Source of the DNA: a virus | DNA length: 64,000 nucleotides | Direction: 5' to 3' (one strand) | IMG/VR virus record: IMGVR_UViG_3300008516_000159 | Shown here: positions 3,749 through 33,335 of the stretch, piece after piece | How the letters are laid out: every line of letters begins with the position of its first letter | How positions within the stretch are numbered: the first letter of the stretch is position 1 | Position numbers and translations under genes: made by a program | Notes under the pieces: generated by a model | Told to the model about the DNA's origin: nothing | What the model saw: only the letters and a program-made list of their open reading frames with translations | Databases searched by the model: none

Positions 3749-3823
3749 TGCCCGCGAGAGGATTCGAACCTCCAACATCACGGTCCTAAGCCGTGCGCCT
3801 CTGCCAGGTTGCGCTACGCGGGC
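3749..3823 (-). tRNA. tRNA-Leu(UAG)
   Basis: CACGG-CTTAGGA-CCGTG anticodon arm. Confidence 0.9.
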
Positions 3824-4182
3824 TAATCTTTCAATATAAGCTTCGCAACTTCTTTACGATGCTCAGGAAGCACTTCTAAATCAGCGAAAGCTTTGATTAA
3901 TGTGTATATCCCCCTTGGTGTTATTTTCCACCAATTAGAGAGATAGTACGTTGCCCCTCCTCTAACCGAAGCATTTACTGGTCTGTGTTTTGTTATCTTC
4001 AATACCTTTTTCTTCTTCATTTCGTACAAATAACATCTGGTTTTAGAAGAACTATACGCCACACCTTCAAACAGAAAACAAGCCTGTGCCGTACGAAAGG
4101 TTTCTATTCCGAATTCCCCATACACTTCGCGCAAGCGCTCCATGTATTTGTATATTTCAACCCCATCTTTGTTTATAAACAC
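3823..4182 (-). CDS. Hypothetical protein with C-terminal AKxLL-like motif
   Basis: Ends RKEVAKLILKD; G of the TAG stop is tRNA nucleotide 1. Confidence 0.65.
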   Translation of the reverse strand: MFINKDGVEIYKYMERLREVYGEFGIETFRTAQACFLFEGVAYSSSKTRCYLYEMKKKKVLKITKHRPVNASVRGGATYYLSNWWKITPRGIYTLIKAFADLEVLPEHRKEVAKLILKD

Positions 4183-4375
4183 GGCCGTACTTTCTCCTCG
4201 CAGCCTCTTCGCATCTATCTAATATGTGCCTTTTGAGCTTATCGGCGGTTACACTTAAAGACGAAACTGCAACTGCGGCCGCAGCCGCCTTGTAACCTGC
4301 CTCATAAGCGTCACTTACTAATTCAGCATAACGCTCAGCGGTAATCGTGATAGTTATTGCCATGTTTTCTCCAAT

Positions 4376-4448
4376 CGTGCCGAGCGGGTTTCGAACCCAC
4401 GACCTATGGCTCCGCAGGCCATCGCTCTGTCCCCTGAGCTACCGGCAC
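4376..4448 (-). tRNA. tRNA-Arg(GCG)
   Basis: ATGGC-CTGCGGA-GCCAT anticodon arm. Confidence 0.9.
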
Positions 4449-4449
4449 T

Positions 4450-4761
4450 TTAGACCTTATCAACCGCATCGGCGATTTTTTTATAATATTCCTGCATCTT
4501 TTCAAAAGATTCCTTGTCTAGATACTGACAGCTTAGAAAAGTCGGCATTCCGTTTATTGCCACAGGGCACGCCTTGTTTATGTATTCAAAGATCAAGAAA
4601 GGCTTATTTTTGTTAAATTGTTTTCGAGCCTTTTTGTCCATAAAAGCAAGAGGCATGAATATGTGATCTATGAAAGATTTATTCTCGCACTGCTTGTCGG
4701 TGAAAACCTCGCCCGAATAAATGTCAAGAGCGAGCTGTTTTAGTTCCTCGTTGCTTCTCAT
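4450..4761 (-). CDS. Hypothetical phage protein
   Basis: 103-aa ORF packed between adjacent genes. Confidence 0.6.
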   Translation of the reverse strand: MRSNEELKQLALDIYSGEVFTDKQCENKSFIDHIFMPLAFMDKKARKQFNKNKPFLIFEYINKACPVAINGMPTFLSCQYLDKESFEKMQEYYKKIADAVDKV

Positions 4762-4955
4762 TTTCTCACCTCTATTTGTTGATCTCTTTTATAAGAGACA
4801 CAACCTTTAAATCGATCTACATTAATTTTTAGGCCGCCTGCATTATTTATTGTACACCAGTTCGCGAACGCCGCGTAATATTTGCAAGTTGAACAGACAG
4901 AATGAACACTGTCACTTACCAATAAACGTTTGGCTTCTTGAGCTTTATGATTCAA
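4758..4955 (-). CDS. AKxLL-CxxC microprotein
   Basis: Probable TTG start at 4955 (the longer ORF overlaps a tRNA); KAQEAKRLL...CSTC...C...C. Confidence 0.65.
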   Translation of the reverse strand: MNHKAQEAKRLLVSDSVHSVCSTCKYYAAFANWCTINNAGGLKINVDRFKGCVSYKRDQQIEVRK

Positions 4956-4967
4956 TTTAATTCCTTT

Positions 4968-5041
4968 TGGGCCAGGAGGGAATCGAACCCCCAACTCCTT
5001 GATTAAAAGTCAAGTACGCTGCCTAGTTGCGTCACTGACCC
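4968..5041 (-). tRNA. tRNA-Lys(UUU)
   Basis: CTTGA-CTTTTAA-TCAAG anticodon arm. Confidence 0.9.
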
Positions 5042-5505
5042 GCTACTACTTACTTCTTCTTGGCTATGTCTTGCATTATCAAACCTACAAGCTTGTGTAT
5101 CCCGTCGTCACGATTATGATACGTATGTCCCTTTGTTGCTTGTTTGTCTTGTCTATCATACCTAACATAATCATATCCGCACAGGTTGTCCTCAATAGTT
5201 AGCACATTTGTACAATCTATAAGCTCGATCAAAGTGCCGTTTACTTCTATTTTTATCGTCATCATTTTTCATTCTTCCTTTGAGAATAGTGCTTCCAATC
5301 TGTTCTGTACACCCTGCGCTTCATCAAAGGTGACACAGTTGAGCATATATGTATCGTGCTCAGCTTGAGCCTTGTAGAACCTTAGTTTTTTACCGAACGT
5401 TTTTTCAATTGCTTCTTCGTTCAACACCGTGTTCATGGGAACCTGTAAAAACACGGTGTTTGTTTTTAGTGATATAAATATTCGCTTTTCCATGCTATTA
5501 TCTAT

Positions 5506-5625
5506 GTCTCAAGCTCTCTCCGGGCACTGCGGTTAGATGTCTCCAATTTAGCTATACCGCACCTCGATCGTGGAGACCGGTTCACGTAAAGAGGTGAGAC
5601 ACGGCGCCCGGACAGAGCTCGAAAC
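5506..5625 (-). ncRNA. Candidate ~120-nt structured RNA, unknown family
   Basis: Long closing stem GAGCTCT-G-TCCGGGCGC / GTGCCCGGA-GAGAGCTT; internal CACCTC/GAGGTG and CGTG/CACG; directly 3' of tRNA-Tyr. Confidence 0.55.
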
Positions 5626-5629
5626 CATG

Positions 5630-5711
5630 TGGGCCGGGGAGGACTCGAACCTCCGAAGTCCGAAGACGTGTGGTTTACAGCCACGTGGAATTGCCACTAT
5701 CCGACCGACCC
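5630..5711 (-). tRNA. tRNA-Tyr(GUA)
   Basis: Loop CTGTAAA; long variable arm. Confidence 0.9.
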
Positions 5712-5861
5712 TTTTGTTTCTTTTACAACTATCGCATAACATTTATCACAAAGACCGTGAGAAATAACCGGTTCCTTGTATTTAGGATTATCCGGCCATT
5801 CTTCTTCGCGGATGTCTTTACCGCATTTACTACACCGTATTATTGCCTTCATATATTATAT

Positions 5862-5890
5862 ATTATAACCTATTTCTAAAGAATTGTAAA
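5862..5890 (-). promoter_or_regulatory. Sigma70-type promoter
   Basis: TTTACA-N17-TATAAT. Confidence 0.7.
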
Positions 5891-5898
5891 GCTAAAGC

Positions 5899-5924
5899 AA
5901 AAAAAAACTTCCCCGCAGGGAAGT
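5899..5924 (-). terminator. Intrinsic terminator
   Basis: ACTTCCC-TGCG-GGGAAGT followed by a T run. Confidence 0.75.
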
Positions 5925-6050
5925 CTGTTAATCTGATCTCAGGTCCCTGTGGTTATGGCGTAATCCTGGCGAGTAGTAAATACAAATCGCCATAACGTTT
6001 ACACAGGTAATGTCTCATTTCTTTTTCCTCTCGTATATGTATGTCTTATC

Positions 6051-6269
6051 TTAAGACATATTCACATAATGCTTGTATTTCGGAGGATGTTTTTTCTCCC
6101 AATCGAGGCAGCCAAATTTATCAGGTAGATCTATGATTTTAAAGCTATATAGACCGCACACAGGCTCATCTATATACTTTTGGCGTTCGCTACTTCTTAT
6201 GAACCAGTGACAGTCTACACAGACGTTACCGATCAGAAGTTGTTTGGCTTTTTCTGTTTTCGTTGTCAT
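6051..6269 (-). CDS. AKxLL-CxxC microprotein
   Basis: MTTKTEKAKQLLIGNVCVDC...C...CLDW. Confidence 0.7.
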   Translation of the reverse strand: MTTKTEKAKQLLIGNVCVDCHWFIRSSERQKYIDEPVCGLYSFKIIDLPDKFGCLDWEKKHPPKYKHYVNMS

Positions 6270-6412
6270 CACAATACGATGGTTCATAATATTTGCAAGC
6301 TGGAACAGTCTCTGGATCATATATGATCCCACCATCAACTTCACATAAGTGAAAATGATGTGGTGTTCCTGCGCATTTTAGACAAGTTATGCACGTCTTT
6401 TTATCGTTCATT

Positions 6413-6486
6413 TGAGCGATAGTGGGTTCGAACCACTGACCTCTTGGACGTCGACCAAGCGCTCATACCAACTGAGCTAATCGCCC
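6413..6486 (-). tRNA. tRNA-Val(GAC), C at position 33
   Basis: CTTGG-TCGACGT-CCAAG. Confidence 0.88.
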
Positions 6487-6821
6487 TGTTCCTCCACTTT
6501 AGCATCATACTCAGAAAGATTACTAATCACATCGGCTTTTTCCTGCATTTCTCTATTGTCTAATTGAAAAATCAAGTTAACACATACGCACGCCATTTGC
6601 AAAAGCCGTTTTTTCAATTCAATTTTAAAATATGGATTTGATACATCCAACTTATCAATTTTCGCAAGACGCTTTCGTAACATTCTACGAAACTCTTCTA
6701 TTCCTGCATCTTTGTTTAGGTCGCTCCACAAAAACTCTTGAATCTTTCTGGCGGCTATCATGACATCCACCATGATTTTTTCTTCATCAGATAATCTTTT
6801 AGAATCCATGTTATCCTCGTG

Positions 6822-6894
6822 TGCGGAGTGAGGGAGTCGAACCCCCGACTTTCTGAATGTAAGTCAGACGCGCTACCAGCTGCGCTAACCCCGC
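6822..6894 (-). tRNA. tRNA-Val(UAC)
   Basis: TCTGA-CTTACAT-TCAGA. Confidence 0.9.
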
Positions 6895-7007
6895 TAAAGA
6901 ACTCTGGTGAAATTTCCTACCAAAAGCATATCTCTCTTTTTGCTTAGCAGGCGGATCAGAGAGCCATTTCTTTTTTCACACGCCGTCTCGCTATTACAGA
7001 GTTCGTG

Positions 7008-7080
7008 TCCCCCGGGACAGTATCGAACTGCCTACGCTCTGGCCTTCAACCAGACGCTCTACCTATTGAGCTACCGAGGG
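7008..7080 (-). tRNA. tRNA-Phe(GAA)
   Basis: TCTGG-TTGAAGG-CCAGA. Confidence 0.9.
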
Positions 7081-7105
7081 TTAATCAAATCATGATATGT
7101 CTTGC

Positions 7106-7318: not shown

Positions 7319-7512
7319 GTTCTTGTCAATGGCGTCATAACCTTAAGATTGTGACATTCTCCATCTAAGATTTTCAGCTTGCAACCGAAAGCCCTAATCA
7401 TTTCTTCTGCATCTGGCAATGTCTCAAATATCAACTGCTTCGGAAACACGCAGTTGTTGCATGTTTTGTCCGTCAAAATGGCCATGGCTGTTTGTTTTTT
7501 ATCTAACTTCAT
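7294..7512 (-). CDS. AKxLL-like CxxC microprotein (variant)
   Basis: KKQTAMAILTDKTCNNC...CEKF; start trimmed to avoid the tRNA. Confidence 0.6.
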   Translation of the reverse strand: MKLDKKQTAMAILTDKTCNNCVFPKQLIFETLPDAEEMIRAFGCKLKILDGECHNLKVMTPLTRTCEKFIKR

Positions 7513-7527
7513 TTCTATGTAAATCAT

Positions 7528-7599
7528 TAGGCCCTGAGGGAATTGAACCCCCGGCACCTAGATTAAGAGTCTAGTGTTCTTCCGCTGAACTAAGGGCCC
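7528..7599 (-). tRNA. tRNA-Lys(CUU)
   Basis: CTAGA-CTCTTAA-TCTAG. Confidence 0.9.
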
Positions 7600-8024
7600 G
7601 GTATAACTGAGTAATCTTCAGCCAAATGAACTCTCTGTTGTTGATTGTTCTTAGCTGGTTCTACTCTTAATGATATATTATCACCAGAAAAATCTACTAT
7701 AGGTATAAAATATAACCTTTTATTATTTGGACAATAAACGACAACCAAATCAATTTCATCTTTTCTGGCTGGTCTCCTCCGCTTTCCTTGGTAAGGTCCT
7801 GAACTACTTATATCAACAAGCAACGCTCCATTGGTTTTTTTCCCTTCGCGAATAGAAATATATTTTACTTGGACTCTTAAACACTTTCCGTTCTTATACG
7901 CAATAAAGTCAAATGGCAAATGCTCGCTTATTGTTGTAAAAATATAGTATCCACTTTCCGCAAAAGACAATTGAGCTTTGTAGACGGCCAAATCTCCTTT
8001 ATCTGCAGTAGGGTGTTTATTCAT
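7590..8024 (-). CDS. PD-(D/E)XK endonuclease (group I intron-associated-type, free-standing)
   Basis: KGDLA, PFDFIA, RVQVK; stop codon lies inside tRNA-Lys. Confidence 0.85.
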   Translation of the reverse strand: MNKHPTADKGDLAVYKAQLSFAESGYYIFTTISEHLPFDFIAYKNGKCLRVQVKYISIREGKKTNGALLVDISSSGPYQGKRRRPARKDEIDLVVVYCPNNKRLYFIPIVDFSGDNISLRVEPAKNNQQQRVHLAEDYSVIPGP

Positions 8025-8390: not shown

Positions 8391-8406
8391 CTCTCTAAAT
8401 AATATG

Positions 8407-8479
8407 TGTGCACGGCTGGACTTGAACCAGCTGCCTCAGAGTTATCAGCTCTGTGCTCTACCAGCTGAGCTACGCGCAC
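8407..8479 (-). tRNA. tRNA-Ile(GAU)
   Basis: CAGAG-CTGATAA-CTCTG. Confidence 0.92.
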
Positions 8480-8830: not shown

Positions 8831-9277
8831 CTAGGACACTGGTGTGAATCTCCCCTGTTTACTTAGATCCCTCCTTTCATAAGCCCATTTGGAGCGACAG
8901 GATTTCGAACAAAACGTGTTTGTAATTCCTCTTTTCATCCTCTTGCGATGATCTCGCTCTAATCTTTCAAACCGCATGCCGCATTCGTTGCACACGAGAG
9001 TGATTTGTGGAGATTTTCGCGGCCGAGGACGGTTGCGCTTTCTGTGGCTAAAAGCGATATTATCCAAATCAAAGAAAAGTTCGATTGGATCCTTGCTGTG
9101 TAGCCACGGCACCTTATGTTCTATACTCAACTCATCGGCGCCTTCAATCCTCTTTCCGCATCGAAAACAAACATCTTCTCCCAAACGTCGAACCATATTG
9201 AACAACAACATTTTTTTCAGTTTGGAGGCGGCAGTTGTGTGGCTCACACCCAACTGTTCTTTTTTGGAGTCACTCAT
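8831..9277 (-). CDS. HNH endonuclease with C-terminal zinc finger
   Basis: CFRCG, LSIEHK, NIAFSH; CNECG...FCSKSC. Confidence 0.8.
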   Translation of the reverse strand: MSDSKKEQLGVSHTTAASKLKKMLLFNMVRRLGEDVCFRCGKRIEGADELSIEHKVPWLHSKDPIELFFDLDNIAFSHRKRNRPRPRKSPQITLVCNECGMRFERLERDHRKRMKRGITNTFCSKSCRSKWAYERRDLSKQGRFTPVS

Positions 9278-9296
9278 TTTAAGCCTTTTTTAAAAG

Positions 9297-9551
9297 AATA
9301 ATAGCTCTCATAACCTGGATTCTGATTAAATCTACATCTATCTCAGCCTTAGACTGGCCCTTGCGAGCTGCCCGCTACCCGCTCATCATGATGCCACTTA
9401 CGCATTAGAGCTGCTTGCGGTCGCACGGTAGATCGCCATAGCGATCTTTATGAGTGGTAAAACGGCTTGTGGCCTCCCACACTAAGTGGACCGTGTCCAG
9501 AGTTTTCTCTACATATTGTGAAATATGCAGCGTAGATCCGGAGCTATTATT
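9297..9551 (-). ncRNA. rnpB: Ribonuclease P RNA (minimal, ~255 nt)
   Basis: P1 AATAATAGCTC/GAGCTATTATT; P2 ATCTACG/TGTAGAT; P3 GCATATT-TCAC-AATATGT; P4 AAC(T)CTGGA/TCCAGGTT in contexts GAGAAAACTCTGGAC and CAGAATCCAGGTTAT. Confidence 0.88.
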
Positions 9552-9623
9552 TAGGCCGAGCGGGATTCGAACCCAGCATTGAGCGGTTATAAGCCGCCGA
9601 GTCTACCATTGACTTACCGGCCC
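9552..9623 (-). tRNA. tRNA-Ile(UAU)
   Basis: GGCGG-CTTATAA-CCGCT; 3' end abuts the RNase P RNA. Confidence 0.88.
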
Positions 9624-9729
9624 GTGCGCTTGGCAAACTTCTCAGCGAGCTTTTCTGTCGCTATTGTTTCTACGTATAGTATACCAAGCAATCCTAAAAT
9701 TGTAAAGGTATTAATTAAAATCTGCATCT

Positions 9730-9903
9730 CTATATCTCCATAGCCGATTCATCGATACAACTAGCACAGAGCCAATGTTTAGTATAATCACCATACATGT
9801 CGGCAGCATATGGATCTTCAGTGTATTCTGCGTTAGGATTGCCACACCTTTCGCAGGGTTTGGATAATAAAAGCTCTTTTGCTTTTTCGGCCTTTTGTTT
9901 CAC
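9730..9903 (-). CDS. AKxLL-CxxC microprotein (57 aa, not in ORF track)
   Basis: GTG start; VKQKAEKAKELLLSKPCERCGNPNA...EDPY...HWLCASC; paralog of the next two ORFs. Confidence 0.75.
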   Translation of the reverse strand: MKQKAEKAKELLLSKPCERCGNPNAEYTEDPYAADMYGDYTKHWLCASCIDESAMEI

Positions 9904-10300: not shown

Positions 10301-10316
10301 GGCATTATCTATGTCT

Positions 10317-11572: not shown

Positions 11573-11595
11573 TTTTATCTCCTTGTACCTATATT

Positions 11596-11683
11596 CGGAG
11601 AGCTAGAGATTCGAACTCTAAAAGCAACAATTGTCGCTTTACTGCTTTTCGAAAGCAGCTCCTCATCCAACCGGATGCCCTCC
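11596..11683 (-). tRNA. tRNA-Ser(CGA)
   Basis: CTGCT-TTCGAAA-AGCAG; long variable arm. Confidence 0.88.
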
Positions 11684-12082
11684 ATTATATTTCTCGTAGT
11701 ATTTTTTTCGATATCTATTATAATTATTATTACAACCCCTATTTCTACCTGCAAATGTAGTTGTTTGGCTATTACAGTTAGAACAAATAAGTCTCAAATT
11801 ATTTTTGCTGTGATTTATATTATTTCCGTCAATATGATCCAATACAAATATAAGATCTTTGTTGTTCCAAACATTTTCCATTCCACATATGGCGCATTGA
11901 TTATTCTGTTCACTTAATAGATATCGTCTGATCCAAATACCAGGCTTTTTAGATGTTGCTCCACTTTTTAGCCATTCTATAATATATATTTCTTCGCGAT
12001 GTCTTCTACTACAGCTGTCACAACATTCGCTGTTGCTGTAAATCTTTCTTCCACAATTACAAATTTTATTCTTTTGTGGCAT
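11663..12082 (-). CDS. HNH endonuclease
   Basis: CAICG, LDHIDGN, NLRLICSNCNSQ; stop codon inside tRNA-Ser(CGA). Confidence 0.88.
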   Translation of the reverse strand: MPQKNKICNCGRKIYSNSECCDSCSRRHREEIYIIEWLKSGATSKKPGIWIRRYLLSEQNNQCAICGMENVWNNKDLIFVLDHIDGNNINHSKNNLRLICSNCNSQTTTFAGRNRGCNNNYNRYRKKYYEKYNGGHPVG

Positions 12083-12963: not shown

Positions 12964-13110
12964 TCAATATCTCATATACATATGCTTTTAATAATATAGA
13001 CGCCGCCCCGTTGTTACGAGTATATATATCAAGCTCCTTAACTTGACCCCGCGTTGCCTACCGAACCTGGGGCTGCGCGCCTATTGGCGATCAAGAAGGA
13101 TCGACCAATA

Positions 13111-13196
13111 CGGAAGGCCGGGGATTCGAACCCCGAAGCCACTTGCGCGACCAACAGATTAGCAATCTGTCCGACTACCAATTATCGCAGCCTTCC
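13111..13196 (-). tRNA. tRNA-Ser(GCU)
   Basis: ACAGA-TTGCTAA-TCTGT; long variable arm. Confidence 0.9.
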
Positions 13197-13600
13197 AAAA
13201 ATTCCTTATAAAAAGGCCTCTCGTTAGATTTCTTTTTTTTAGCTTCCAACACTCTTATAGAAAAATAATGCTCACAACTGCCGTCTAAGTGTTTTTTTGA
13301 AATATACAACACTTTATCTACATCTGGAACATATACTGCCCAACCATCTATTAAATCCATGTCTATAGCCACTTCTTTGCTATTTACAACATTGTAAAAA
13401 GGTATATGAATCAAACCTTCCCAGCCTTTTCTATTAACCGATCTATACTTCACTTGCAGTCTTACGGTCTTTGATCCTTTGACCGCAATCAGATCAACAG
13501 AGGAATAATCTCCGAATGGCAAGAAGATTTCGTAACCTCTATCGATTAAATCGTCAATTACTTTAGTTAAGCCTTTTACGCCCTTTTCGTTTGTGTTCAC
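13175..13600 (-). CDS. PD-(D/E)XK endonuclease (paralog of 7590..8024)
   Basis: KGVKG, VDLIA, RLQVKY; stop codon inside tRNA-Ser(GCU). Confidence 0.85.
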   Translation of the reverse strand: MNTNEKGVKGLTKVIDDLIDRGYEIFLPFGDYSSVDLIAVKGSKTVRLQVKYRSVNRKGWEGLIHIPFYNVVNSKEVAIDMDLIDGWAVYVPDVDKVLYISKKHLDGSCEHYFSIRVLEAKKKKSNERPFYKEFLEGCDNW

Positions 13601-14407: not shown

Positions 14408-14490
14408 CGGAGGCGGAGGGATTCGAACCCCCAAGCCGTTACCGACCACTCGGGTTCAAACCGAGCTGACTACCGTTATCACACGCCTCC
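14408..14490 (-). tRNA. tRNA-Ser(UGA)
   Basis: CTCGG-TTTGAAC-CCGAG; long variable arm. Confidence 0.9.
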
Positions 14491-14679
14491 TACTTCATCC
14501 CGTATCGTTTTCTTATTTCTTCCCAGGCTATATTATGACGAATCAAATCCTTTGCCCACTCGGCCCGATGCCGCTTTCTTTCTTTGTTAAGTCGTCGACG
14601 CGCTATAATAAACAATACAGTCGCGACGAACATGCCAAAAACAGCAAGCAAAAATCCAAGTATTTTTACAAAGTCCATT

Positions 14680-17474: not shown

Positions 17475-17492
17475 TTCATACTTATATATGTA

Positions 17493-17568: not shown

Positions 17569-17573
17569 GCGTG

Positions 17574-17647
17574 CTGACCCGAGTGGGATCGAACCACTAA
17601 CATCCAGATTCAAAGTCTGGCGCTCTACCAAATTGAACTACGGGTCA
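17574..17647 (-). tRNA. tRNA-Gln(UUG)
   Basis: CCAGA-CTTTGAA-TCTGG. Confidence 0.9.
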
Positions 17648-17869
17648 TTCTCTGAGGCGCGCTCTCAACATCGCTCCGACAACATGAGCCGCCATTTTAA
17701 CCATATCTTTATTACGTTCTGTTGAGTATATCGAAACTACAGATTGCTCTATGTCTACATGTACGTTAGGAATGGTCGATATGGTGAGAAGTGCTTTTTT
17801 GATGCCAACAACCCTTTCGGGCGTAAGGCCATCAACAAAGTAGCTATACCATTTCAGCTTTGCAGTCAC
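17645..17869 (-). CDS. Small ferredoxin/HMA-like fold protein lacking CxxC
   Basis: VDGLT..RVVGIKKAL...IPNVHVDIE pattern; TGA stop is tRNA nt 1-3. Confidence 0.45.
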   Translation of the reverse strand: MTAKLKWYSYFVDGLTPERVVGIKKALLTISTIPNVHVDIEQSVVSIYSTERNKDMVKMAAHVVGAMLRARLRE

Positions 17870-17931
17870 GAGCTTTCTCCTGAATGCTTATCATTGTATC
17901 GCTTCTTTGTTGTTTTGTAAAGCTATAAGCG

Positions 17932-17989
17932 CTCCCCCGGATAGACTCGAACTATCATCTCCAGCCCAAGCGGCTGGTGTCTTAAGGGA
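17932..17989 (-). pseudogene. D-arm-less tRNA-like element
   Basis: T arm GATAG-TTCGAGT-CTATC and arm CCAGC-CGCTTGG-GCTGG, but no D arm. Confidence 0.5.
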
Positions 17990-18073
17990 CGTCTCCCCAC
18001 GAAAGTAACTAACATATAAACCAACTAGTATGTTTAAATGTGTTTTCTTTCTCCATGCTAGACGACGAGAGAT

Positions 18074-18146
18074 TGGAGCTGGGGGGATTCGAACCCCCAA
18101 TATCCTGAGTGCAAATCAGGCATCTTCCCAGTTTGATCACAGCCCC
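18074..18146 (-). tRNA. tRNA-Ala(UGC)
   Basis: CCTGA-TTTGCAC-TCAGG; G3:U70. Confidence 0.92.
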
Positions 18147-18529
18147 TAGGGTAATGTTAAAGCGTATTTGGCCTGTGCGGCTTTATTTGCTAACCTAACA
18201 TGACCATTTTTGATCATATTTTCTATGATGGTGTATGACACGTGCATAACCTTGTTGATAGTACCATCCTTCATAACGGCCGCAAAAATAACCGCGTTAT
18301 CTCTTACGTAATATTCAGGTCCACTTATGTGTAGGACGCCATCAAATCTGACGTATTTGGTAAGTTTTTTAAGTTCTTCTTTTGTTATAACAGAATACGC
18401 TGGCAGCATAATCTGTTCTTTCTCGACTGGATATTTATTCCAGTCTATTTCGTAAACCTTGGCTAATTTAAAAAAATTATGTTCGGGTTTCATTGTTAGT
18501 GTGATTTCGGTAACTTCGTCCGTGTCCAT
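18146..18529 (-). CDS. Hypothetical protein with C-terminal AKxLL-like motif
   Basis: Ends KAAQAKYALTLP. Confidence 0.6.
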   Translation of the reverse strand: MDTDEVTEITLTMKPEHNFFKLAKVYEIDWNKYPVEKEQIMLPAYSVITKEELKKLTKYVRFDGVLHISGPEYYVRDNAVIFAAVMKDGTINKVMHVSYTIIENMIKNGHVRLANKAAQAKYALTLP

Positions 18530-18556: not shown

Positions 18557-19410
18557 AGCCTGAGACTAGAGCTCTATATGTTAACCCTTTCATTCCCTTA
18601 CGGTTTGGGTGCTATCCAAACCTTAGGAACTTATCCACCGATCCAGGACCGGTAGGTTAACACAGCTGCTTTTTTATACTGGTAGCGGTTCCAGTGTCGC
18701 ACTGAATCACTCGGCTATCTGGGTACCGTCAGCCTTGCGAGCTGTAAAGAGGCGCTAACCTCACCGTGCTCCTTTCAACCAACCTTCCGCCGCCTTGCGA
18801 GCCTTGGAAAGTCCATATTCCCCGAAGGGTACGGAGTTGAGCTGCTTTCATCCAGCACCGGGTCAGTCTTTGCAGATATTCCAACGTATCGGAATCGAAC
18901 CGATCACATTATGCTCCTCAAGGCATACGCTCTACCAAACTGAGCTAACATTGATAAAACGGGTCACCCCGCGGCAACACCGTGCTAACCCACCAGTTTC
19001 ATAGGCTTTTGGCCTACGGAATGCCGGACGGTGCTTGTCTTTCCCTTGCCAGGTACTGAACGGTTTTTCAAGATCGATGTGCTCCCAACGCATACCGTTG
19101 GGCGGATATGCCCACCAACCTATCAAACTGCTATGAGGCGCTCACTTGCGAGGCTCGCACAACATAACTACTGTTCACTCTCCTGTTTGACCGATTTTGG
19201 TTGCAAGTAATCGATTTCCAGTCGAAAGAAATAATGCCAGTGTTACCCACATCATTTCCTGTCCTTGCTCGGCGTCCACACAAGCTCCGCGAGGACCGCG
19301 AAGCCATTGGAGTGTCAGCTTGCTTGAATTGACCATCCGAAGATGGCGACGGTCGCCAACCCGCCTTTACAGTCCTTGCGAACTGCTGTCAATGTCAAGC
19401 CACTATATAC
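18557..19410 (-). ncRNA. Giant ornate ncRNA, GOLLD-like, with embedded tRNA
   Basis: ~850 nt with no credible ORF; many GCAA/UUCG-capped hairpins; boxA-like GTTCTTTGAAA upstream; ends AGTCTCAGGC then a T run. Confidence 0.7.
18880..18954 (-). tRNA. Atypical tRNA (Leu GAG-like) with 8-nt anticodon loop
   Basis: TATGC-CTTGAGGA-GCATA; canonical D and T arms. Confidence 0.75.
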
Positions 19411-19723
19411 TTTTTTCAAAGAACAATCTTTTCTTGGAATGCAGAGTTATATATGCTTCCAGAAATAGCTTTTTTTTATCTTTTTTAATAACCGCTTATC
19501 TCAATACTTCTGGATGTTCCACAGCCAGGGCACTTAACATCAACAGAAAGTTCTCCGTGAGATCCACAAAGCTCACAAGGACTACTCCAGTGATTAAACG
19601 CAAACTCGTCAACTTTCACTCTGTGTGATTTATCACACTTGCTGCAGTGAAACTTCACAGTAATACTTTCTAAAGTGAATTCGATCTTCTTGCCTCTGGC
19701 CATGTTATCCTCCTAAGATCTAT

Positions 19724-19900: not shown

Positions 19901-19974
19901 TCGGGACGGCTGGATTCGAACCAGCGACTACCTGATCCCAGGTCAGGTGGGGTAGCCAGCTCCCCTACGCCCCG
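19901..19974 (-). tRNA. tRNA-Pro(UGG), C33, second copy
   Basis: CCTGA-CCTGGGA-TCAGG. Confidence 0.85.
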
Positions 19975-20052
19975 TGGCACGTCCGCCAGGATTCGAACCC
20001 GGAACCAACTGCTTTGGAGGCAGCCGCTCTGCGCAATTAGAGCTACGGACGC
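19975..20052 (-). tRNA. tRNA-Trp(CCA)
   Basis: GCTGC-CTCCAAA-GCAGT; encoded CCA end. Confidence 0.9.
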
Positions 20053-20282: not shown

Positions 20283-20285
20283 ATG

Positions 20286-20357
20286 AGCGAGTGAGGGGAC
20301 TCGAACCCCTAATAAGTAGCTTGGAAGGCTACCGCCCTACCATTGGACGACACTCGC
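20286..20357 (-). tRNA. tRNA-Gly(UCC)
   Basis: GTAGC-CTTCCAA-GCTAC. Confidence 0.92.
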
Positions 20358-20555
20358 TTATTTCAAAGACCATTTATCACAGCCCCTGTTAAATATAACA
20401 TCGAGGACTAAATCTTTTTTCAAAAAACAATACTCATATACTCCAATTGGAGGACCGGCATCATCCTCTTTACAGTGCCGGCAATTACTGCATCTCTTTC
20501 CGTGCTTTAAAAGATCCTTGGCTGCATCCCTCTTCGCGTCTGACCTGCCAGTCAT
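20358..20555 (-). CDS. AKxLL-CxxC microprotein
   Basis: KRDAAKDLLKHGKRCSNC...CDKW. Confidence 0.72.
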   Translation of the reverse strand: MTGRSDAKRDAAKDLLKHGKRCSNCRHCKEDDAGPPIGVYEYCFLKKDLVLDVIFNRGCDKWSLK

Positions 20556-20697
20556 CACAATTCTTTCCTTTTTGCAGGTGCACAGTTGGTGTCGAATCGA
20601 AAAAACACATCCTAGCTCTTTGAACCACGCTAGCATACACACAATTACTGCATCCTCTTCCGTGCTTTAAAAGATCCTTGACTAATTCACGTTTCAT
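20485..20697 (-). CDS. AKxLL-CxxC microprotein
   Basis: MKRELVKDLLKHGRGCSNC...CDDW. Confidence 0.72.
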   Translation of the reverse strand: MKRELVKDLLKHGRGCSNCVYASVVQRARMCFFDSTPTVHLQKGKNCDDWQVRREEGCSQGSFKARKEMQ

Positions 20698-21103: not shown

Positions 21104-21123
21104 CGCACGATTATATATGTCGC

Positions 21124-22257: not shown

Positions 22258-22492
22258 GCTTTTTTTTATTTTTCTTCGGAAAGGACAACCTTTTCAAGCT
22301 CTGTGATAAGCTTTTTTATTGTTTCATGTGCCTTTGAACACGCGCAAGCGATTACGTGCGGCGCGCCAGCGCCATGACCAACGCACGATGCGTGTTTCCA
22401 AAGAGTGTCAATGGCGGTCAAATAAAGCTCTACTTTTTCTTTATCTTCAACTTTTACCATTTTTATCACCTCACCTCAATATATATGTTTTG

Positions 22493-22567: not shown

Positions 22568-23431
22568 TTGAATGTATTTACTTATCGGCTTCGGCAAATC
22601 TCTTTTCATTTTCCTTTCTTATCCTTTCCATTGTCTTTTTCCATTTCCTTTTTTTTACCTCATCAGGATCGTTTTTTTTGCCTTTGCCAACTAATTTCAT
22701 GATTTCAGTCAAGTGCTCAGTTTCGTCCTTAATGGAGCCTTCCAGATATTGTATCTTAAATTCAATATCTTCACACTTTTTTGCGATTTTAGAATCTGGC
22801 ACCCGTTTTGTGTTAATTATTTCCCATTCAATTTTTCTGAATTTATCAGACCACGAATGTCCATCCGCCTTTGTGTCTACATGTAATTCTTTTATTTCTT
22901 CAGTATCTACCTTGTCGGCATAAAGAGGGATGTATTCCCAGTCAGAGCATCCCCATGCCCAAGTGCTTCTCATCTTGAGCCATTTCATATTTACTCCTCC
23001 AATCAATATTAATAGCAGACAGACAGAATTAACTGTTATAATCTCTCGATCGTCTTGCCAGAATCATTCAACAAATACGCTTCTTGAACAGCAAGCACTC
23101 TCGTATCGCCAGAATTAAGAAAAAGATATAAGATGCTAACATATTCAGAATCTTCATTTGACAATTGAACCTGCTGACATTCATAAACAGGATATTCACC
23201 TGGTATCTCTTCGCAAGAACTTCTACCTCGTGGAACGTAAATAAGAGGAAAAACCTTACCATCCTTCATTATTCCAGAAGTAGTACTGATTTCATGAATA
23301 TCCTCTATGAATCTCCAAGTAGTTGAGCGCTCACCCAACAAATTTGTACTTTTTACTTTAAGTATCATAATCTTCCTTCCTTTCTATCTATTTTCTACCT
23401 GTCTGCTTGTTTGTTGTATACATATGTTATG

Positions 23432-23504
23432 AGCTGACGCCGGGAATCGAACCCGGGACCTGCTGATTACCGATCAGCTGCGCTACCGCCTGTGCCACGT
23501 CAGC
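23432..23504 (-). tRNA. tRNA-Thr(GGU), C33
   Basis: GCTGA-TCGGTAA-TCAGC. Confidence 0.88.
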
Positions 23505-24407
23505 TTAGTTCATTTTATGTTTTTCATTTAAGCTCTTTCGAATAGCCAGGTACTTTACCCGGGCCATGACAAAAAACATCGCGACGATACAGAGAGTTAA
23601 TACTACAATTAGACTATAGAAAGTAACCTCTATGTTCTTTGCGCTAGCCAGAAAAAAGTTGGCAATCAAAAGTGGCGAAGCACCCAACAACAACCATCCA
23701 AATCTACATTTTCGATTGTCATACCACGCATTCAACCTGTACTGCCATTTTGATATTCTCATTTTAATTAAACTTCATTCAATTGAAACCTTTTAAAGAG
23801 ATTCTCGTCAGTAATCCCAATAGACCGGCAAAACTCCATATTATGCAATTTTTCGGTCGCTTCTTCTACAGTATCCGCCTCAACGGTTATTACTGTTTTT
23901 GGCTCCACAACACCGTTTTTAAAAGCAATCGCATATGATCCTGACGAATCCGGATTCTCAAAAAGAATGGCGTATCTCACAGCTGGACCTCCTTTTAAAG
24001 CTATTTGTTCTTAGTAACGGCAAGCGTTACGTTTTTTAACTCCCAATCGTTCATTTATGTGGTTATTCAGTATAATCCCACGGCCATCCTATAAAGCCCT
24101 TGCCTTTAATGCAATGACCGATTAAACACCCAATGCCAGTACAAAACAATAGACCTATATAAATGATCATACCTATTTCCCACCATTCCATTTTATCACT
24201 CCTAATCAATCCTCTAAAATGTGCTGGTGCCAGATTGCGAAACACAAATCGCGGCGAATCGGCCCATTGGAGTGTGGCACCATCCAACGGATACTATCCA
24301 ATTTACAGTCCTCGCAATCTTGCCAATTAAAATCTTTGATATCATTATAGCGATTTAAATGCTTACAACGAGCTCTTATCGCCGCTTTCAAGAGCTGGTC
24401 CATTTCA

Positions 24408-27354: not shown

Positions 27355-27392
27355 TTTTTTTGTTTCCTCTTTCTTTTGTCGTATATTCCATG

Positions 27393-27465
27393 AGCCGGCG
27401 ACAGGATTCGAACCTGCATCATCCTCATTACAAGTGAGGCGCTCAACCATTGAAGCTACACCGGC
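27393..27465 (-). tRNA. tRNA-Thr(UGU)
   Basis: CCTCA-CTTGTAA-TGAGG. Confidence 0.9.
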
Positions 27466-27643
27466 TAATCCAACACCTCTAAAATATCAATATTACCAAC
27501 CCACTCGCCTTTGTTCATTTCAACGACAATCATGTCCGTGTTAGGAATTTGGCGCACCTTTTCAACCTTGCCCCTTATACTGTGTCCGAATGCGCTTTTG
27601 TGTTCAACCGTTTTACCGACCAGCTTGCGAGCCTCTTCTAATG

Positions 27644-28006
27644 TCATTCCTCTTCATACCTTTCTGGATTTTCACTAATAGTCACAACCAATTCATTACC
27701 ATCAGTGCTGAACATGTAATATGTCTCGCCGAATTCAGGTTCTATTCTTATATTCAAAGGCTCTTCTGTCTCGTCTAAAGCTCTTAATACAAAAGTAGAA
27801 TGAGGTCCGTATTGAGTAAGATTGTGTGTCACAAAATCATAGGGACCCGTGCTGCTATGCGTGCTATATATAAAACCGGCGACTGTTATTTCACCACACA
27901 TTAACTCCCATCGTCCACTATAACTTACCTGGACTTTGTAGCATTGCGCGAACAGCGGCACGCCAATCAAAAGAAAAATCAATGTAAGAAAAATCAGCTT
28001 TTTCAA
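27644..28006 (-). CDS. Secreted hypothetical protein
   Basis: Signal peptide MKKLIFLTLIFLLIGVPLFA. Confidence 0.6.
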   Translation of the reverse strand: MKKLIFLTLIFLLIGVPLFAQCYKVQVSYSGRWELMCGEITVAGFIYSTHSSTGPYDFVTHNLTQYGPHSTFVLRALDETEEPLNIRIEPEFGETYYMFSTDGNELVVTISENPERYEEE

Positions 28007-28030
28007 AAAACCTCCTATATATAAAATCGA

Positions 28031-28292: not shown

Positions 28293-28324
28293 CCAATTTC
28301 AAAGAACAAATTTGTGCTATTCTT

Positions 28325-29403: not shown

Positions 29404-30083
29404 CTGACCCCTCTTGCGAAATCAATGGCCATTTGTTTGGCATCTTCCATGGTCTTGGCCTTCCACTCGCCGCGGCCCCACGCAGGATACGTAGTGAATA
29501 TATCATGATTTATTGTCCCACCATCATCTTGTACAGTTGTAAATGTCAACCGCATTCCTTTTTCATTAGTATATTTGTCCAGATGATCCAACTCATATTT
29601 GATATTGGTATCATCGTCGTCGGTATAAAAGTTAACAGTATCCTCAACGAACTCTTGTTTGTTGCGAGGAGTAAAGCCGCAACTGCCTTTTACAACCTTG
29701 CTGCCGATGGTGAATCCGTATATGGCTCTGTGCGACCAGCCATACCATTTATTTTCTTCTTCACAAAAACCAATCGAGCAAGGCCGCATAGTTTCATCTT
29801 CACCCTCTTTTAAAAGTCGCTTGGCTTTCACAGCTTTCGGCAGCTCTTTCCTTTGGATTTTTTCCGGCTTTATACCACGTTTGGCGCAAATATAATATCC
29901 AATTTTCTTGTCTCCAATATACCAACCGTCGGGCCAGGTAAAAGCCGTACACATATCAAAATCTTGACAGCCATACGTAGCGCCATAGACGGTGTAGTAT
30001 GCTAATTGATAACCATGGTTCTTGTACCTAATAACCTTGTTTATCTGTTTTACGTCTTTGCCGTACCTTTCTATATCTAACAT
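29400..30083 (-). CDS. Hypothetical phage protein with internal AKxLL motif
   Basis: KAVKAKRLLKEG precedes CSIGFCEEENKWYGWSHRAIYGF. Confidence 0.7.
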   Translation of the reverse strand: MLDIERYGKDVKQINKVIRYKNHGYQLAYYTVYGATYGCQDFDMCTAFTWPDGWYIGDKKIGYYICAKRGIKPEKIQRKELPKAVKAKRLLKEGEDETMRPCSIGFCEEENKWYGWSHRAIYGFTIGSKVVKGSCGFTPRNKQEFVEDTVNFYTDDDDTNIKYELDHLDKYTNEKGMRLTFTTVQDDGGTINHDIFTTYPAWGRGEWKAKTMEDAKQMAIDFARGVS

Positions 30084-30095
30084 ATTAATTCCATT

Positions 30096-30170
30096 CGGAG
30101 ACGAAGGGATTCGAACCCTTAACCTTTTGATAGACAGTCAATTGTTCTAGCCAATTAGAACTACGCCTCC
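30096..30170 (-). tRNA. tRNA-Asp(GUC)
   Basis: TTGA-CTGTCTA-TCAA. Confidence 0.88.
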
Positions 30171-30576
30171 TGGTTTTCTTCTATACCGACTTTAGTGGCT
30201 CATCGTTTGTCGAAGCCGCTTCTGGTTTATAAACTTCCCATGACTTCCCGATTTTTATTTCTGGAGTCAAACCCTTTTCCGTTAGTTCATCGAAAAGATT
30301 CTTTCGAGCGACCTGAGCATCTTCGGTAGCATCAACAGCCTCTTTGAAAAGACAAGCATCGTGCCTTGGTATTTCTATTTCCTTGGCGTCCTTTTCGTCA
30401 ACCCTTGGCTTATCTGAATGAAACATCCCGGCGGCATCGTTTACGCATATATCAAACTCCGGTAACCACAGCTCCCAGATTTGGTGTTCAAAACAACTAT
30501 GAGCGATCACCGCACCGGGATTAACAGTAATCTTATACAGCAAAGCCTTCATAGGGACACTCCTGCTATTTATATG

Positions 30577-30648
30577 AGCGGCCAACGGGACTCGGACCCG
30601 TGTTTTCACCTTGGCAAGGTGGTGTAATAGCCCCTATACGATGGCCGC
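30577..30648 (-). tRNA. tRNA-Gly(GCC)
   Basis: CACC-TTGCCAA-GGTG; T loop TCCGAGT. Confidence 0.86.
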
Positions 30649-30719
30649 TAAATAAATACTGCCTCTGGTTCTTCCAACAGCGGCATTTTATTGTTTGTCG
30701 TCAAGATTATATATGCTAT

Positions 30720-30791
30720 TGCCTCAGACCGGATTTGAACCGGTATACTCTTCCGTATGAAAGAAGCGCTAAGCCATTTAGCTACTGAGGC
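30720..30791 (-). tRNA. tRNA-Met(CAU), elongator or Ile2
   Basis: CTTCT-TTCATAC-GGAAG. Confidence 0.85.
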
Positions 30792-31382
30792 TTAAAGATA
30801 ATTCAAATCCGTTAGAATGCGCTTGAAATAATTAAGCTTTACGTCTTCGTAAGCCAAAAACTCCCAATCGATAGTCAATATTTTTACACAGTACCGATCA
30901 GAATAAGCTTTGTAAAAGATCTCGTAATATTGTACATCCGGCCTATTCAATCTATAAACAAGCCCTATATAAATTTCTTTTTTTACTCTTTCATTGGCCT
31001 TGCGACAACAATCAAGAAAGCTATCTCCCGGACTACTTAGTATTCCTAAAAGAATAACGGTTGCGATTATAGAAAAGATGATCCTTTTCATTTACGGAGC
31101 CTTTGTACTACATCGAATATTTTGTTCAATACTTCATTCTCAAAAACTCTGTCGTCTTTTATGAATGTATCCCCACATAAATCCCAGTCCATCTCGTGTT
31201 CCATCTCACGCAAGATATCGCCCAGCTCTAACAACATATTTGACAGTTCCGGAAACCGATCTTTAACATACGGATCCCTAGCGATATTGTCTAGATCATC
31301 CTCAAGCCTGGCTCCAGAATAACCGAAATGTCCACCACTCATCTTAACTCGATCCTTTCTTGTTAGCAAAATCTAATTTCAT

Positions 31383-31454
31383 TAGCGGGGACAGGACTCG
31401 AACCTGTGACCTTTGGGTTATGAGCCCAACAAGCTGCCTCTGCTCCACCCCGCA
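31383..31454 (-). tRNA. Initiator tRNA-fMet(CAU)
   Basis: 1:72 mismatch; three G-C pairs in TTGGG-CTCATAA-CCCAA. Confidence 0.88.
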
Positions 31455-31463
31455 TCGTTTACT

Positions 31464-32219
31464 CTATCTATAAAGAGTAAGTATATCGGGTTCACCATCT
31501 CGCACCAATATGGTGTGTTCAAAATGGGCTGATGGTGTGCCGTCCTTTGTGACAACCGTCCACTTGTCGTCGCTGACATACACTTCATACCCACCAACAT
31601 TCACCATTGGTTCAATGGCGAGTGTCATCCCTGCGCGCAAACGCGGCCCTTTGCCCGGTACTGGTGCTTTAAAGTTGGGTATGCGAGGCTCCTCGTGCAA
31701 TCTCTTACCAACACCATGCCCAACAAAATCGCGAACTATTGAAAATCCATCACCTTCCACCACGTTTTGAACAGCCCGAGATATATCGGCCACATGATTG
31801 TGGTGAACCGCTTTTTCTATTCCCGCATAAAGAGCACGCTCTGTCGTTTCCAGAAGCTTTCTCTTTACCTCTGATATGCGACCGACAGGGATAGTAACGG
31901 CTGCATCACCAAAATACCCGGCCGTGTTCACTCCCACGTCAACACTCAGTATATCGCCTTCTTGCAGCCTGTACACACCCGGTATGCCATGAATAACCTC
32001 TTCGTTGATCGACGAACAGATTGTAGCCGGGAACCCTTTGTAATTCTTAAAGGCCGGTATTGCACCACGTTTCTCTATAAACGCTTCCGCCTTTTTATCT
32101 AGCCATTCCGTGGTAACGCCGATTTTTACAATCTCTCTCAAATACTCAAGCAGTTCGGCAATGATCCTGCAGGACTGTCTGATATACTTAAGCTCTGTCT
32201 CGTTCTTCAACTCGTGCAT
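31464..32219 (-). CDS. map: Methionine aminopeptidase type I
   Basis: CSSINEEVIHGIP, DVG...YFGDAA, GHGVG..LHEEP, AIEPM, SAHFEHT; start trimmed to avoid the tRNA. Confidence 0.95.
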   Translation of the reverse strand: MHELKNETELKYIRQSCRIIAELLEYLREIVKIGVTTEWLDKKAEAFIEKRGAIPAFKNYKGFPATICSSINEEVIHGIPGVYRLQEGDILSVDVGVNTAGYFGDAAVTIPVGRISEVKRKLLETTERALYAGIEKAVHHNHVADISRAVQNVVEGDGFSIVRDFVGHGVGKRLHEEPRIPNFKAPVPGKGPRLRAGMTLAIEPMVNVGGYEVYVSDDKWTVVTKDGTPSAHFEHTILVRDGEPDILTLYR

Positions 32220-32252
32220 CCTGCTCTGTATATATGCTTCGCGAAAATTAAT

Positions 32253-32324
32253 TAGCCCGTAGGGGAATCGAACCCCTATCATCAGGTTGAAGGCCTGGCG
32301 AACTGACCATTATTCGAACGGGCC
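32253..32324 (-). tRNA. tRNA-Glu(UUC), C33
   Basis: CAGG-CCTTCAA-CCTG. Confidence 0.88.
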
Positions 32325-33056
32325 TTATGCGTATTTCAACAAAATCTTTACTACTTCTTTTCTATTCGACACATTGCGAGATGGAATAAGACAATATCTA
32401 TCCTTGAATACTTCTATTTCGCAGGATCTTGGATTATACTGGAAAACCAGATCCATACCCCAGGTAGTAAACGTACCCTCTTTTCCAAAATATTCTATTT
32501 CTCCATTTGGATATATTCCGATTATCATAACCTAAACATGACGACCAAAGGTTGTGCTTTCGTCAGTACACTCCATTAAAAACGTATCGCCTATTTGCGG
32601 GCCGTTGTGTCATTTTTCTTTCTCAAATATATTTGTCACCAAATGTTTCTTAAATACATCTGGTACAGTTGTTGTTGCCGATTCGACGTGTACGCCTTCT
32701 AGCACTATGTCCTTGTCGCGATATATGTCCCACCCGAATCTATATGGGTCATCCTCATCTTCCTGAAAATATATGAAATCACCGCGGGCCTTCCAAACAT
32801 CCCAGAGTCCATCTTTAGCTTGGTGCTTGCGATTTATTTTCATCAAATACTGCTCTACAACATCTTGTTGACGATTAGGGTACGCGATATATATGGCGCT
32901 TCCTGGCTTTAATTTTCCAAAGGCCTCTTGTGTCATTTTTTGTTACCCCAGATTTATTATGACATATTCAGATACAGACAGTACTATCTTTTCAAATCCA
33001 TGTATAACGCCAACTGCGTGGCACAAATTGCCGAGCTCCTGGCGCGCCCGTGACTA

Positions 33057-33251
33057 TCATATTTTATCTTCCAAAAGATACTTAGCAGTAGCTTTTTTCC
33101 GGGCTCTCGCTTCAGCCGCAACATGAAGATCGTGATCTAAACCGGCTATTTCATCGCCCAAGTTGTCCCAAAAATAAAGAGGGTCCACCTCGGCCTCAAT
33201 AACATATTCCTCACCGGCATATTCAACTTCCATATAAACCTTTGCTTTCAT
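33057..33251 (-). CDS. Small protein with C-terminal AKxLL motif
   Basis: Ends RKKATAKYLLEDKI. Confidence 0.65.
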   Translation of the reverse strand: MKAKVYMEVEYAGEEYVIEAEVDPLYFWDNLGDEIAGLDHDLHVAAEARARKKATAKYLLEDKI

Positions 33252-33263
33252 AATAACCTTCTT

Positions 33264-33335
33264 TAGCCCCGATGAGAATTGAACTCACGTCTCGAGATTG
33301 AGAATCTCGTGGCCTTACCACTAGCCGACAGGGCC
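33264..33335 (-). tRNA. tRNA-Glu(CUC)
   Basis: CGAGA-TTCTCAA-TCTCG. Confidence 0.9.

Follow-up and report, generated by a model that had tools for sequence, protein, structure and literature searches.

In the secG-leuU and tRNA-tufB operons of Escherichia coli, an mRNA and a transfer RNA (tRNA) are made as a single transcript, from which RNase P separates them. Phage T5 (NC_005859, about 28-41 kb) carries its tRNA genes on one strand, interleaved with small open reading frames (ORFs), some of which end inside tRNAs: hegC and hegD (HNH), T5.069 and T5.057 overlap tRNAs, and T5.065 abuts tRNA-Lys. Phage T4 SegB, a homing endonuclease in a tRNA cluster, cuts tRNA genes at a conserved T-arm motif, and co-conversion of flanking DNA has been described for related Seg endonucleases (PMC2330249). 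The subject of this study is a tRNA island in IMG/VR virus record IMGVR_UViG_3300008516_000159, analysed as one stretch of 64,000 nucleotides (here called the window), in which the stop codons of many small ORFs lie on or within the 5′ borders of tRNAs.

The original prediction on this DNA, made from the sequence alone, held that many pre-tRNA 5′ leaders are coding sequence and that, together with an encoded RNase P RNA, the tRNAs may punctuate a long polycistron as in mitochondria. Cleavage before the first tRNA nucleotide (G1) would then leave some mRNAs ending in UA and couple tRNA release to mRNA inactivation. The analysis presented below leads to another explanation. The island is probably of the T5 type, its small accessory genes having entered the 5′ leaders of tRNA transcripts, against which they are tightly packed, and this arrangement would serve no dedicated regulatory role.

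Stop codons at the tRNA borders

ARAGORN identified 37 tRNA genes in the window, all on the minus strand between 2531 and 33335. The Rfam tRNA models confirm the 37 with identical 5′ ends, including those of all ten tRNAs named for abutting junctions. The genes of the window are all on the minus strand as well, and this is the strand of every feature described below.

Direct reading showed that five ORFs end in a TAG of which the G is nucleotide 1 of a tRNA. ORF75 (33335-33562; TAG 33335-33337) shares this G with tRNA-Glu(ctc) (33264-33335) and has a TTTACA-17-TATAAT promoter upstream (33610-33582). The same arrangement is seen for ORF60 (27465-27647; TAG 27465-27467) with tRNA-Thr(tgt) (27392-27465), ORF127 (18146-18529; TAG 18146-18148) with tRNA-Ala (18074-18146), ORF119 (3823-4182; TAG 3823-3825) with tRNA-Leu(tag) (3748-3823), and the membrane-like ORF62 (14490-14678; TAG 14490-14492) with tRNA-Ser(tga). 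ORF62 occupies the entire gap between this tRNA and tRNA-Gln(ctg), its ATG lying 1 nt past the 3′ end of the latter. In four other ORFs a TAA at positions -3 to -1 directly adjoins nucleotide 1: ORF67 (32325-32528; TAA 32325-32327) before tRNA-Glu(ttc) (32253-32324), ORF99 (30792-31091; TAA 30792-30794) before tRNA-Met (30720-30791), the membrane-like ORF85 (23505-23762; TAA 23505-23507) before tRNA-Thr(ggt) (23431-23504), and ORF92 (20358-20636; TAA 20358-20360) before tRNA-Gly(tcc) (20285-20357), the start of a run of five tRNAs. A tenth unit, 17645-17921, consists of a promoter (17921-17893), a Shine-Dalgarno site and ORF74, whose TGA (17645-17647) forms nt 1-3 of tRNA-Gln(ttg) (17573-17647); tRNA-His follows 5 nt on.

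Five ORFs have their stop within a tRNA. ORF110 (6477-6809) reads 10 nt into tRNA-Val(gac), where its TAG (6477-6479) is U8-A9-G10, and the TAG (7590-7592) of a PD-(D/E)XK endonuclease gene (7590-8024) takes up the same three nucleotides of tRNA-Lys(ctt) (7528-7599). An HNH-like endonuclease gene (11663-12082) stops at nt 20-22 (11663-11665) of tRNA-Ser(cga) (11595-11684), and a second endonuclease gene (13175-13600) at nt 21-23 (13175-13177) of tRNA-Ser(gct) (13110-13197). ORF51, which together with its promoter (5890-5862) spans 5697-5890, stops at nt 13-15 (5697-5699) of tRNA-Tyr (5629-5711). Finally, the ORF103 cassette (Shine-Dalgarno site, ORF and TAA; 4450-4761) has its TAA (4450-4452) at -4 to -2, 1 nt before G1 of tRNA-Arg (4376-4448). 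The junctions at tRNA-Tyr and tRNA-Arg are additions to those listed in the original prediction, of which every stop coordinate proved correct by ARAGORN, Rfam and direct reading.

Taken over the island, the 5′ side of the tRNA is flush with or overlapped by coding sequence at 16 of about 26 junctions (d>=-2, where d=0 is a stop ending on G1). All junction stops are complete in the DNA, five of them by borrowing G1 of the tRNA. The 16 junction ORFs are 51-144 aa long, and with the codon usage of the window each of them scores as coding in its own frame and negatively in the other two, the margin being small for the HNH ORF at 11663-12082. Several of them, including ORF92, belong to one paralogous family of Cys4 miniproteins. 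These scores, the Cys4 paralogues and the three endonuclease genes indicate that the junction ORFs are real genes, and the claim that many pre-tRNA 5′ leaders are coding sequence is supported. No PHROGs match was obtained for the ten abutting ORFs.

Genes resembling those of homing endonucleases account for three of the five ORFs that read into tRNAs. The product of 7590-8024 matches PF11645 (E 7.6e-26), and its nearest solved structure is PDB 2OST (E 2.7e-4), the tRNA-fMet intron endonuclease I-Ssp6803I. Its paralogue at 13175-13600 matches the same family (E 4.4e-13), and the HNH Pfam match of 11663-12082 is weak. Further HNH genes are present in the island at 2787-3368 and 8831-9277. With three endonuclease-like ORFs overlapping tRNAs, these overlaps are as in T5 and T4.

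The 3′ sides of the tRNAs are different in character, most of them having ordinary spacers of 11-23 nt with Shine-Dalgarno sites before the next ORF. In the island, no more than two or three ORFs begin within 0-1 nt of the preceding tRNA. A general pattern of flush ORF starts, with leaderless messages, was considered and dropped, as it is convincing for ORF62 and ORF61 only. An ATG at 7527 is improbable as a true start, since the members of that family align from the ATG at 7512.

Exact abutment and the base at position -1

Junctions were called with ARAGORN, taking for each tRNA the same-strand ORF of at least 50 aa with the stop ending furthest downstream, in a range that opens 150 nt before the tRNA and closes 45 nt within it. 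The same pipeline was applied to the tRNA regions of T5, IME-SM1, KVP40, Bxz1, S-CRM01, CcrColossus and Atu_ph07. Exact abutment in the window exceeds that of these seven tRNA-rich phages: a stop ends at -1 or +1 at 9/29 junctions, against 1/47 (Fisher p=5e-4), and within +/-2 at 11/29, against 2/47 (p=3e-4). The excess persists when only compact junctions are considered (p=0.004); gene-to-gene junctions in the window are also tight, with a 4-nt overlap in 13/90 and a 1-nt overlap in 3. Reading more than 2 nt into the tRNA is not commoner in the window (7/26) than in the other phages (12/29). Overlap therefore appears ordinary for phage tRNA islands, and exact abutment is the special feature of the window.

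The base preceding the tRNA provides an explanation for this feature. In the seven comparison phages T is found at -1 in 110 of 178 tRNAs and A in 35, whereas in the window A occupies this position in 29 of the 37 tRNAs and T in two (A, p=1.5e-11). In bacterial pre-tRNAs in general, U is the commonest base at -1, at about 60% (PMC10465520). With U at -1, a stop codon ending at -1 or on G1 is impossible, and A is the only base at -1 with which TAA|G1 and TA|G1 borders can form. When A(-1) is followed by G1, a T at -2 suffices for a TAG and TA at -3 and -2 for a TAA. Exact abutment is frequent here because of A(-1), the border itself often reading TAA|G or TA|G. Counted by position over the 37 tRNAs, stop triplets occur at d=-1 in nine, at d=0 in eight and at d=+9 in 24, the last being U8-A9-G10. 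A single leader base, A or U at -1, determines whether a gene is able to stop exactly at the RNase P site.

A(-1) is not a by-product of the stops: of the 28 tRNAs in which no ORF stop makes use of it, 20 have it (p=4e-5, with 32% A on the strand), and it is also found before tRNAs that come after another tRNA and in every tRNA of four contigs from relatives, including two where the window has C or G. On the other side of the tRNA, A follows the discriminator base in 36/37. In an uncultured phage and its host, with Spirochaetota possibly involved, the A(-1) rule represents a concrete peculiarity of tRNA processing that lends itself to testing.

The enrichment of exact abutment over other phages might also point to functional coupling, in which selection places the stop on the RNase P site. 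Release of the tRNA would then produce a UA-ended non-stop mRNA that is cleared by the transfer-messenger RNA (tmRNA) and exonucleases, timing or limiting the small proteins. The five TA|G1 junctions would indeed lose their stop on cleavage, and in this respect the UA-ended messages of the original prediction would be expected from the sequence. ORF62, bounded by tRNAs on both sides, also suits such coupling. However, a TAA|G1 border keeps its stop after cleavage, and such borders are as common as TA|G1 (4-5 versus 5), in keeping with the base frequencies at -2 and -3. Moreover, the abutting ORFs come from unrelated families with no shared function, and ARAGORN found no tmRNA gene in the window.

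Junctions in related contigs

Homologues of ORF127 with 71-79% identity are present on two ENA contigs (L004 and L005); none was found in IMG/VR or in the first scan of JGI data. The TAG/G1 border at tRNA-Ala is kept in both ENA relatives, with one adjacent codon changed. The longer of these contigs retains the TGA that forms nt 1-3 of tRNA-Gln, and the layout of promoter, ORF74 and tRNA is the same in L004. The promoter 17921-17893 is 100% identical in two relatives despite differing coding DNA. Between tRNA-Ala and this promoter, the window carries an insert of about 145 nt (17922-18073) that is missing from L004 and L005. Although there is a T-arm-like GATAGTTCGAGTCTATC at its end, no tRNA was called there, and the 152-nt stretch folds no better than shuffled sequences (z=-0.45).

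The Tyr-to-Leu part of the island is spanned by two JGI contigs (L020 and L021) with an 82% homologue of ORF119, and here the junctions have changed. In both contigs, a 155-aa ORF separates ORF119 from tRNA-Leu(tag) and is flanked by a duplication of about 17 nt of the ORF119 end. At tRNA-Lys(ttt), the window ORF stops at its own TAA at -9; in the relative, after a 3-nt indel, the stop is a TGA formed by nt 8-10 of the tRNA. The ORF103 cassette, a bare unit of Shine-Dalgarno site, ORF and TAA placed 1-2 nt before G1 of tRNA-Arg, is missing from L020. So is ORF51: the promoter 5890-5862 is conserved in L020 and drives tRNA-Tyr there via a leader of about 25 nt, and ORF51 in the window takes the last 13 conserved leader bases, and then tRNA-Tyr itself, as its C-terminal codons. 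ORF51, ORF103 and ORF155, each confined to a single genome, all directly precede a tRNA on its 5′ side. Of the four ORF-sized differences between the window and its relatives, three are located in pre-tRNA leaders and one, ORF68, just past the 3′ end of tRNA-Arg.

At the five junctions that could be seen in relatives, two were kept and three had the stop moved or an ORF gained or lost. The lack of conservation of the stop position at the latter three speaks against coupling as a selected device, while the conserved tRNA-Ala and tRNA-Gln junctions speak for it; all in all, functional coupling is considered unlikely. Were RNase P cuts to yield non-stop messages at this scale, tRNA islands would constitute a natural system for studying the competition between termination, tRNA maturation and ribosome rescue.

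Two other conserved stretches were noticed in this part of the island. About 135 nt after tRNA-Tyr (5494-5628; L020 1348-1490) are about 93% conserved, more than the neighbouring ORFs, and contain no credible ORF; this stretch is probably another structured RNA. A short unit at 5930-6045 (L020 about 1040-1190), upstream of a terminator at 5926-5905, comprises a GACATACATA motif, a Shine-Dalgarno site and an ORF of 21 codons, and is nearly identical in L020.

Promoters, terminators and co-transcription

Promoters and terminators were counted as matches to sequence motifs. The minus strand of the window has 13 copies (1.2 expected) of a sigma-70-like motif, TTTACA-N17-TAnnnT, about ten of which lie in the island. 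A second motif, CATA(T/G)ATA, has 27 copies on the minus strand of the window, about 14 of which lie in the island; on both strands, 22 and 11 matches were counted against 2.9 and 2.4 expected. It is mostly located just upstream of gene starts, and five copies are found 3-16 nt past a tRNA 3′ end. Four strong terminators are present in the island. With so many internal promoters and terminators, the notion of one long polycistron is contradicted.

In its longer form, (A/G)ACATA(T/G)ATA(A/T), the second motif often lies 5-9 nt before a start codon, where it would give near-leaderless messages; it is also seen before the GOLLD RNA described below and 3-4 nt after tRNA 3′ ends. Examples among the 27 minus-strand copies are those at 34204-34211, 32229-32236, 30708-30715, 22480-22487, 21112-21119, 19448-19455, 17483-17490, 10306-10313, 5499-5506 and 2614-2621. 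It is probably a second, phage-specific class of promoter.

The density of these motifs could mean that most tRNAs are transcribed from a promoter of their own, concealed in the end of the ORF before them, in which case the overlaps reflect DNA economy and tRNA transcripts would include little coding RNA. Indeed, a CATAGATA-like motif is often found 9-12 nt before the G1 of tRNAs with spacers of 9-14 nt, as with the copy at 2614-2621 before tRNA-Leu(caa), and ORF99 contains weak internal promoter-like sites (30958-30929 and 30916-30888). ORF99 is, however, the only abutting ORF with such sites: at nine of the ten abutting junctions neither promoter class was matched inside the upstream ORF. 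The intervals 17490-10656, 9706-5926 and 5506-2802, which carry 4-6 tRNAs each between ORFs, have no recognisable promoter, and the promoter-free stretches of interleaved ORFs and tRNAs span 2.7-7 kb. Furthermore, the conserved promoter at 17921 precedes an ORF and not a tRNA. Independent transcription of most tRNAs is therefore regarded as distinctly unlikely.

The promoter-free multi-tRNA stretches and the promoterless abutting ORFs make co-transcription of ORFs and tRNAs the simplest reading. At the abutting tRNAs there is no room at all for a promoter between stop and G1, and recognisable promoters lie upstream of ORFs, for example at 33610 and 17921; any RNase P cut at G1 must then sever the mRNA. 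Co-transcription, and the cutting of coding leaders by RNase P, are both very likely on these grounds.

The structured RNA at 9297-9551 and other non-coding RNAs

The original prediction assumed an encoded RNase P RNA. The region in question is an ORF-free one of 255 nt (9297-9551), directly after tRNA-Ile(tat) and behind a promoter at 9706-9678. It folds as a structured RNA (z=-3.2) with a closing helix of 12 bp. By eye, the order P1-P2-P3-'AGAAAA-CUCUGGA' ... 'CAGAA-UCCAGGUUAU'-P1′ resembles the CR-I/CR-V strings of E. coli M1 RNA and a P4 helix with a bulged U. The region has no match to any Rfam family, and the assumption is not supported: none of the Rfam RNase P models (bacterial A and B, archaeal, type T and nuclear) matches 9297-9551, even at E<=10. 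The searches with RF00010, RF00011, RF00373 and RF02357 gave no match at gathering score in the window and none at E<=10 on 9100-9750 or 9290-9556.

A minimal RNase P ribozyme at 9297-9551 that prefers A(-1), with the phage leaders adapted to it, would account for the strong A(-1) rule, and the fold of this RNA would suit that role. Yet no RNase P model recognises the region, no homologues were found, and the resemblance to M1 RNA is one seen by eye, so that processing by the phage itself is considered very unlikely. Most unlikely is the fuller scheme in which multi-kb co-transcripts of ORFs and tRNAs are cut at A(-1)|G1 by this RNase P-like RNA, freeing the tRNAs and making UA-ended miniprotein messages.

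A GOLLD RNA is encoded at 18557-19036 (155.7 bits with the Rfam model). Two runs labelled metatranscriptomic each contain one whole contig (705 and 685 nt, at depths of 86 and 50) identical to the GOLLD region 18668-19393. The same runs contain almost nothing else of the phage, apart from pieces resembling tRNAs and methionine aminopeptidase (MAP) of other organisms, and thus have no bearing on ORF-tRNA transcripts. This pattern fits an abundant stable RNA, not DNA carry-over.

Probable insertion of small genes into pre-tRNA leaders

The reading preferred here, a T5-type island with small genes in the tRNA leaders, would work as follows. Transcription would start at the repeated promoters before the ORFs, of the TTTACA-N17-TATAAT and CATA(T/G)ATA classes, and the ORF would be translated from the tRNA precursor. 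Host RNase P would cut at G1 and a 3′ endonuclease past the discriminator base, by which the tRNA is freed, and the coding leader would be discarded or left to decay. As RNase P removes the leader whatever its content, and a promoter lies ahead of it, the leader would be a permissive landing place where inserted ORFs are tolerated and expressed. ORF cassettes would be gained and lost in such leaders, each ending at the first in-frame stop: at the A(-1) border when the frame allows, and otherwise at U8-A9-G10 of the tRNA or further in. Homing-type endonuclease genes of the PF11645 and HNH kinds would add overlaps and offer a route by which flanking cassettes are moved. The relatives show the pre-tRNA leaders of a large phage as landing places for small accessory genes.

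Several points weigh against this reading. Exact abutment is far commoner than in the seven comparison phages, which were chosen as tRNA-rich and in which ORFs were called mechanically. Two junctions are conserved across relatives at 71-79% protein identity, and some selection on the border may thus be at work. The relatives comprise four contigs only, all short. Co-transcription and the cleavage sites are deduced from the DNA.

Other features of the window

tRNA-Trp, in the region 19901-20052, is the sole tRNA with an encoded CCA end and is followed without any spacer by nt 1 of tRNA-Pro, so that a single RNase P cut would form both ends. tRNA-Met(cat) (31383-31454) has a U1-U72 mismatch at the top of its acceptor stem, reminiscent of the mismatch between positions 1 and 72 in bacterial initiator tRNAs.

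The auxiliary genes named by Pfam in the window (SBP_bac_5, GMP reductase, MAP, Dam methylase, RecA-like, SbcC/SbcD-like and RNase HII) form a set typical of a large phage. Megablast against a phage collection revealed no near relative among deposited phages; matches to the window DNA were found in marine-sediment metagenomes. Among 80 metagenome GMP-reductase loci there were almost no tRNA islands, and they were hence of no use as comparators.

The MAP gene (31464-32219) encodes a protein 87% identical to a bacterial MAP on contigs of 30-73 kb that carry NusB, SurA, tRNA synthetases, bactofilin and DUF1577; no tRNA genes were found on these contigs within the 20 kb examined. Named relatives at 66-68% identity are metagenome-assembled genomes of Spirochaetota. 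Scanning genome contigs for MAP yielded relatives of 49-59% only, none in a Spirochaetota genome, and the IMG/VR relatives (L001-L003) contain no tRNAs. The MAP similarity is a clue to the host or to a donor of the gene.

Comparison with known systems

The E. coli operons secG-leuU and tRNA-tufB have non-coding spacers between stop and tRNA, whereas in the window the spacer is zero or negative, and this is repeated about 16 times.

As in animal mitochondria, the tRNAs are flush with coding sequence and their excision would define mRNA 3′ ends, ORF62 being bounded by tRNAs on both sides (PMC8601606, PMC4394434). Mitochondria, however, make one or two long transcripts, while the window has many promoters and terminators. 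Its stop codons are already whole at the DNA level, with no sign that polyadenylation completes any of them, and tRNA excision is predicted from the sequence. Most downstream ORFs keep leaders of 11-23 nt with Shine-Dalgarno sites. Coding sequence is thus flush with the 5′ side of the tRNA at 16 of about 26 junctions, while the 3′ sides are mostly spaced, and neither the few promoters nor the incomplete stops of mitochondria are seen in the window.

The window resembles the T4 SegB region in that endonuclease genes lie among tRNA genes. Its two PF11645 genes (7590-8024 and 13175-13600) share their Pfam family with the 2OST protein but overlap the 5′ part of a tRNA instead of residing in an intron.

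The closest likeness is to T5. With its endonuclease genes among and overlapping tRNAs, its internal promoters and its non-coding RNAs (GOLLD and the structured 255-nt RNA), the island has the traits of the T5 type, T5 itself having many promoters and stable non-coding RNAs in its island and usually an A after the discriminator base. Unlike in the window (A in 29/37; d=-1/0 at 9/29 junctions), T is found at -1 in 14/23 T5 tRNAs and d=-1/0 at 1/10 junctions. The window endonucleases, in contrast to those of T5, are mostly of the PD-(D/E)XK kind (PF11645), and the sequences are unrelated to T5. In conclusion, the finding mainly extends what T5 already shows; new are the tie between flush stops and the rule of A(-1) in the leaders, and the relatives that give direct evidence of ORF insertion into leaders.

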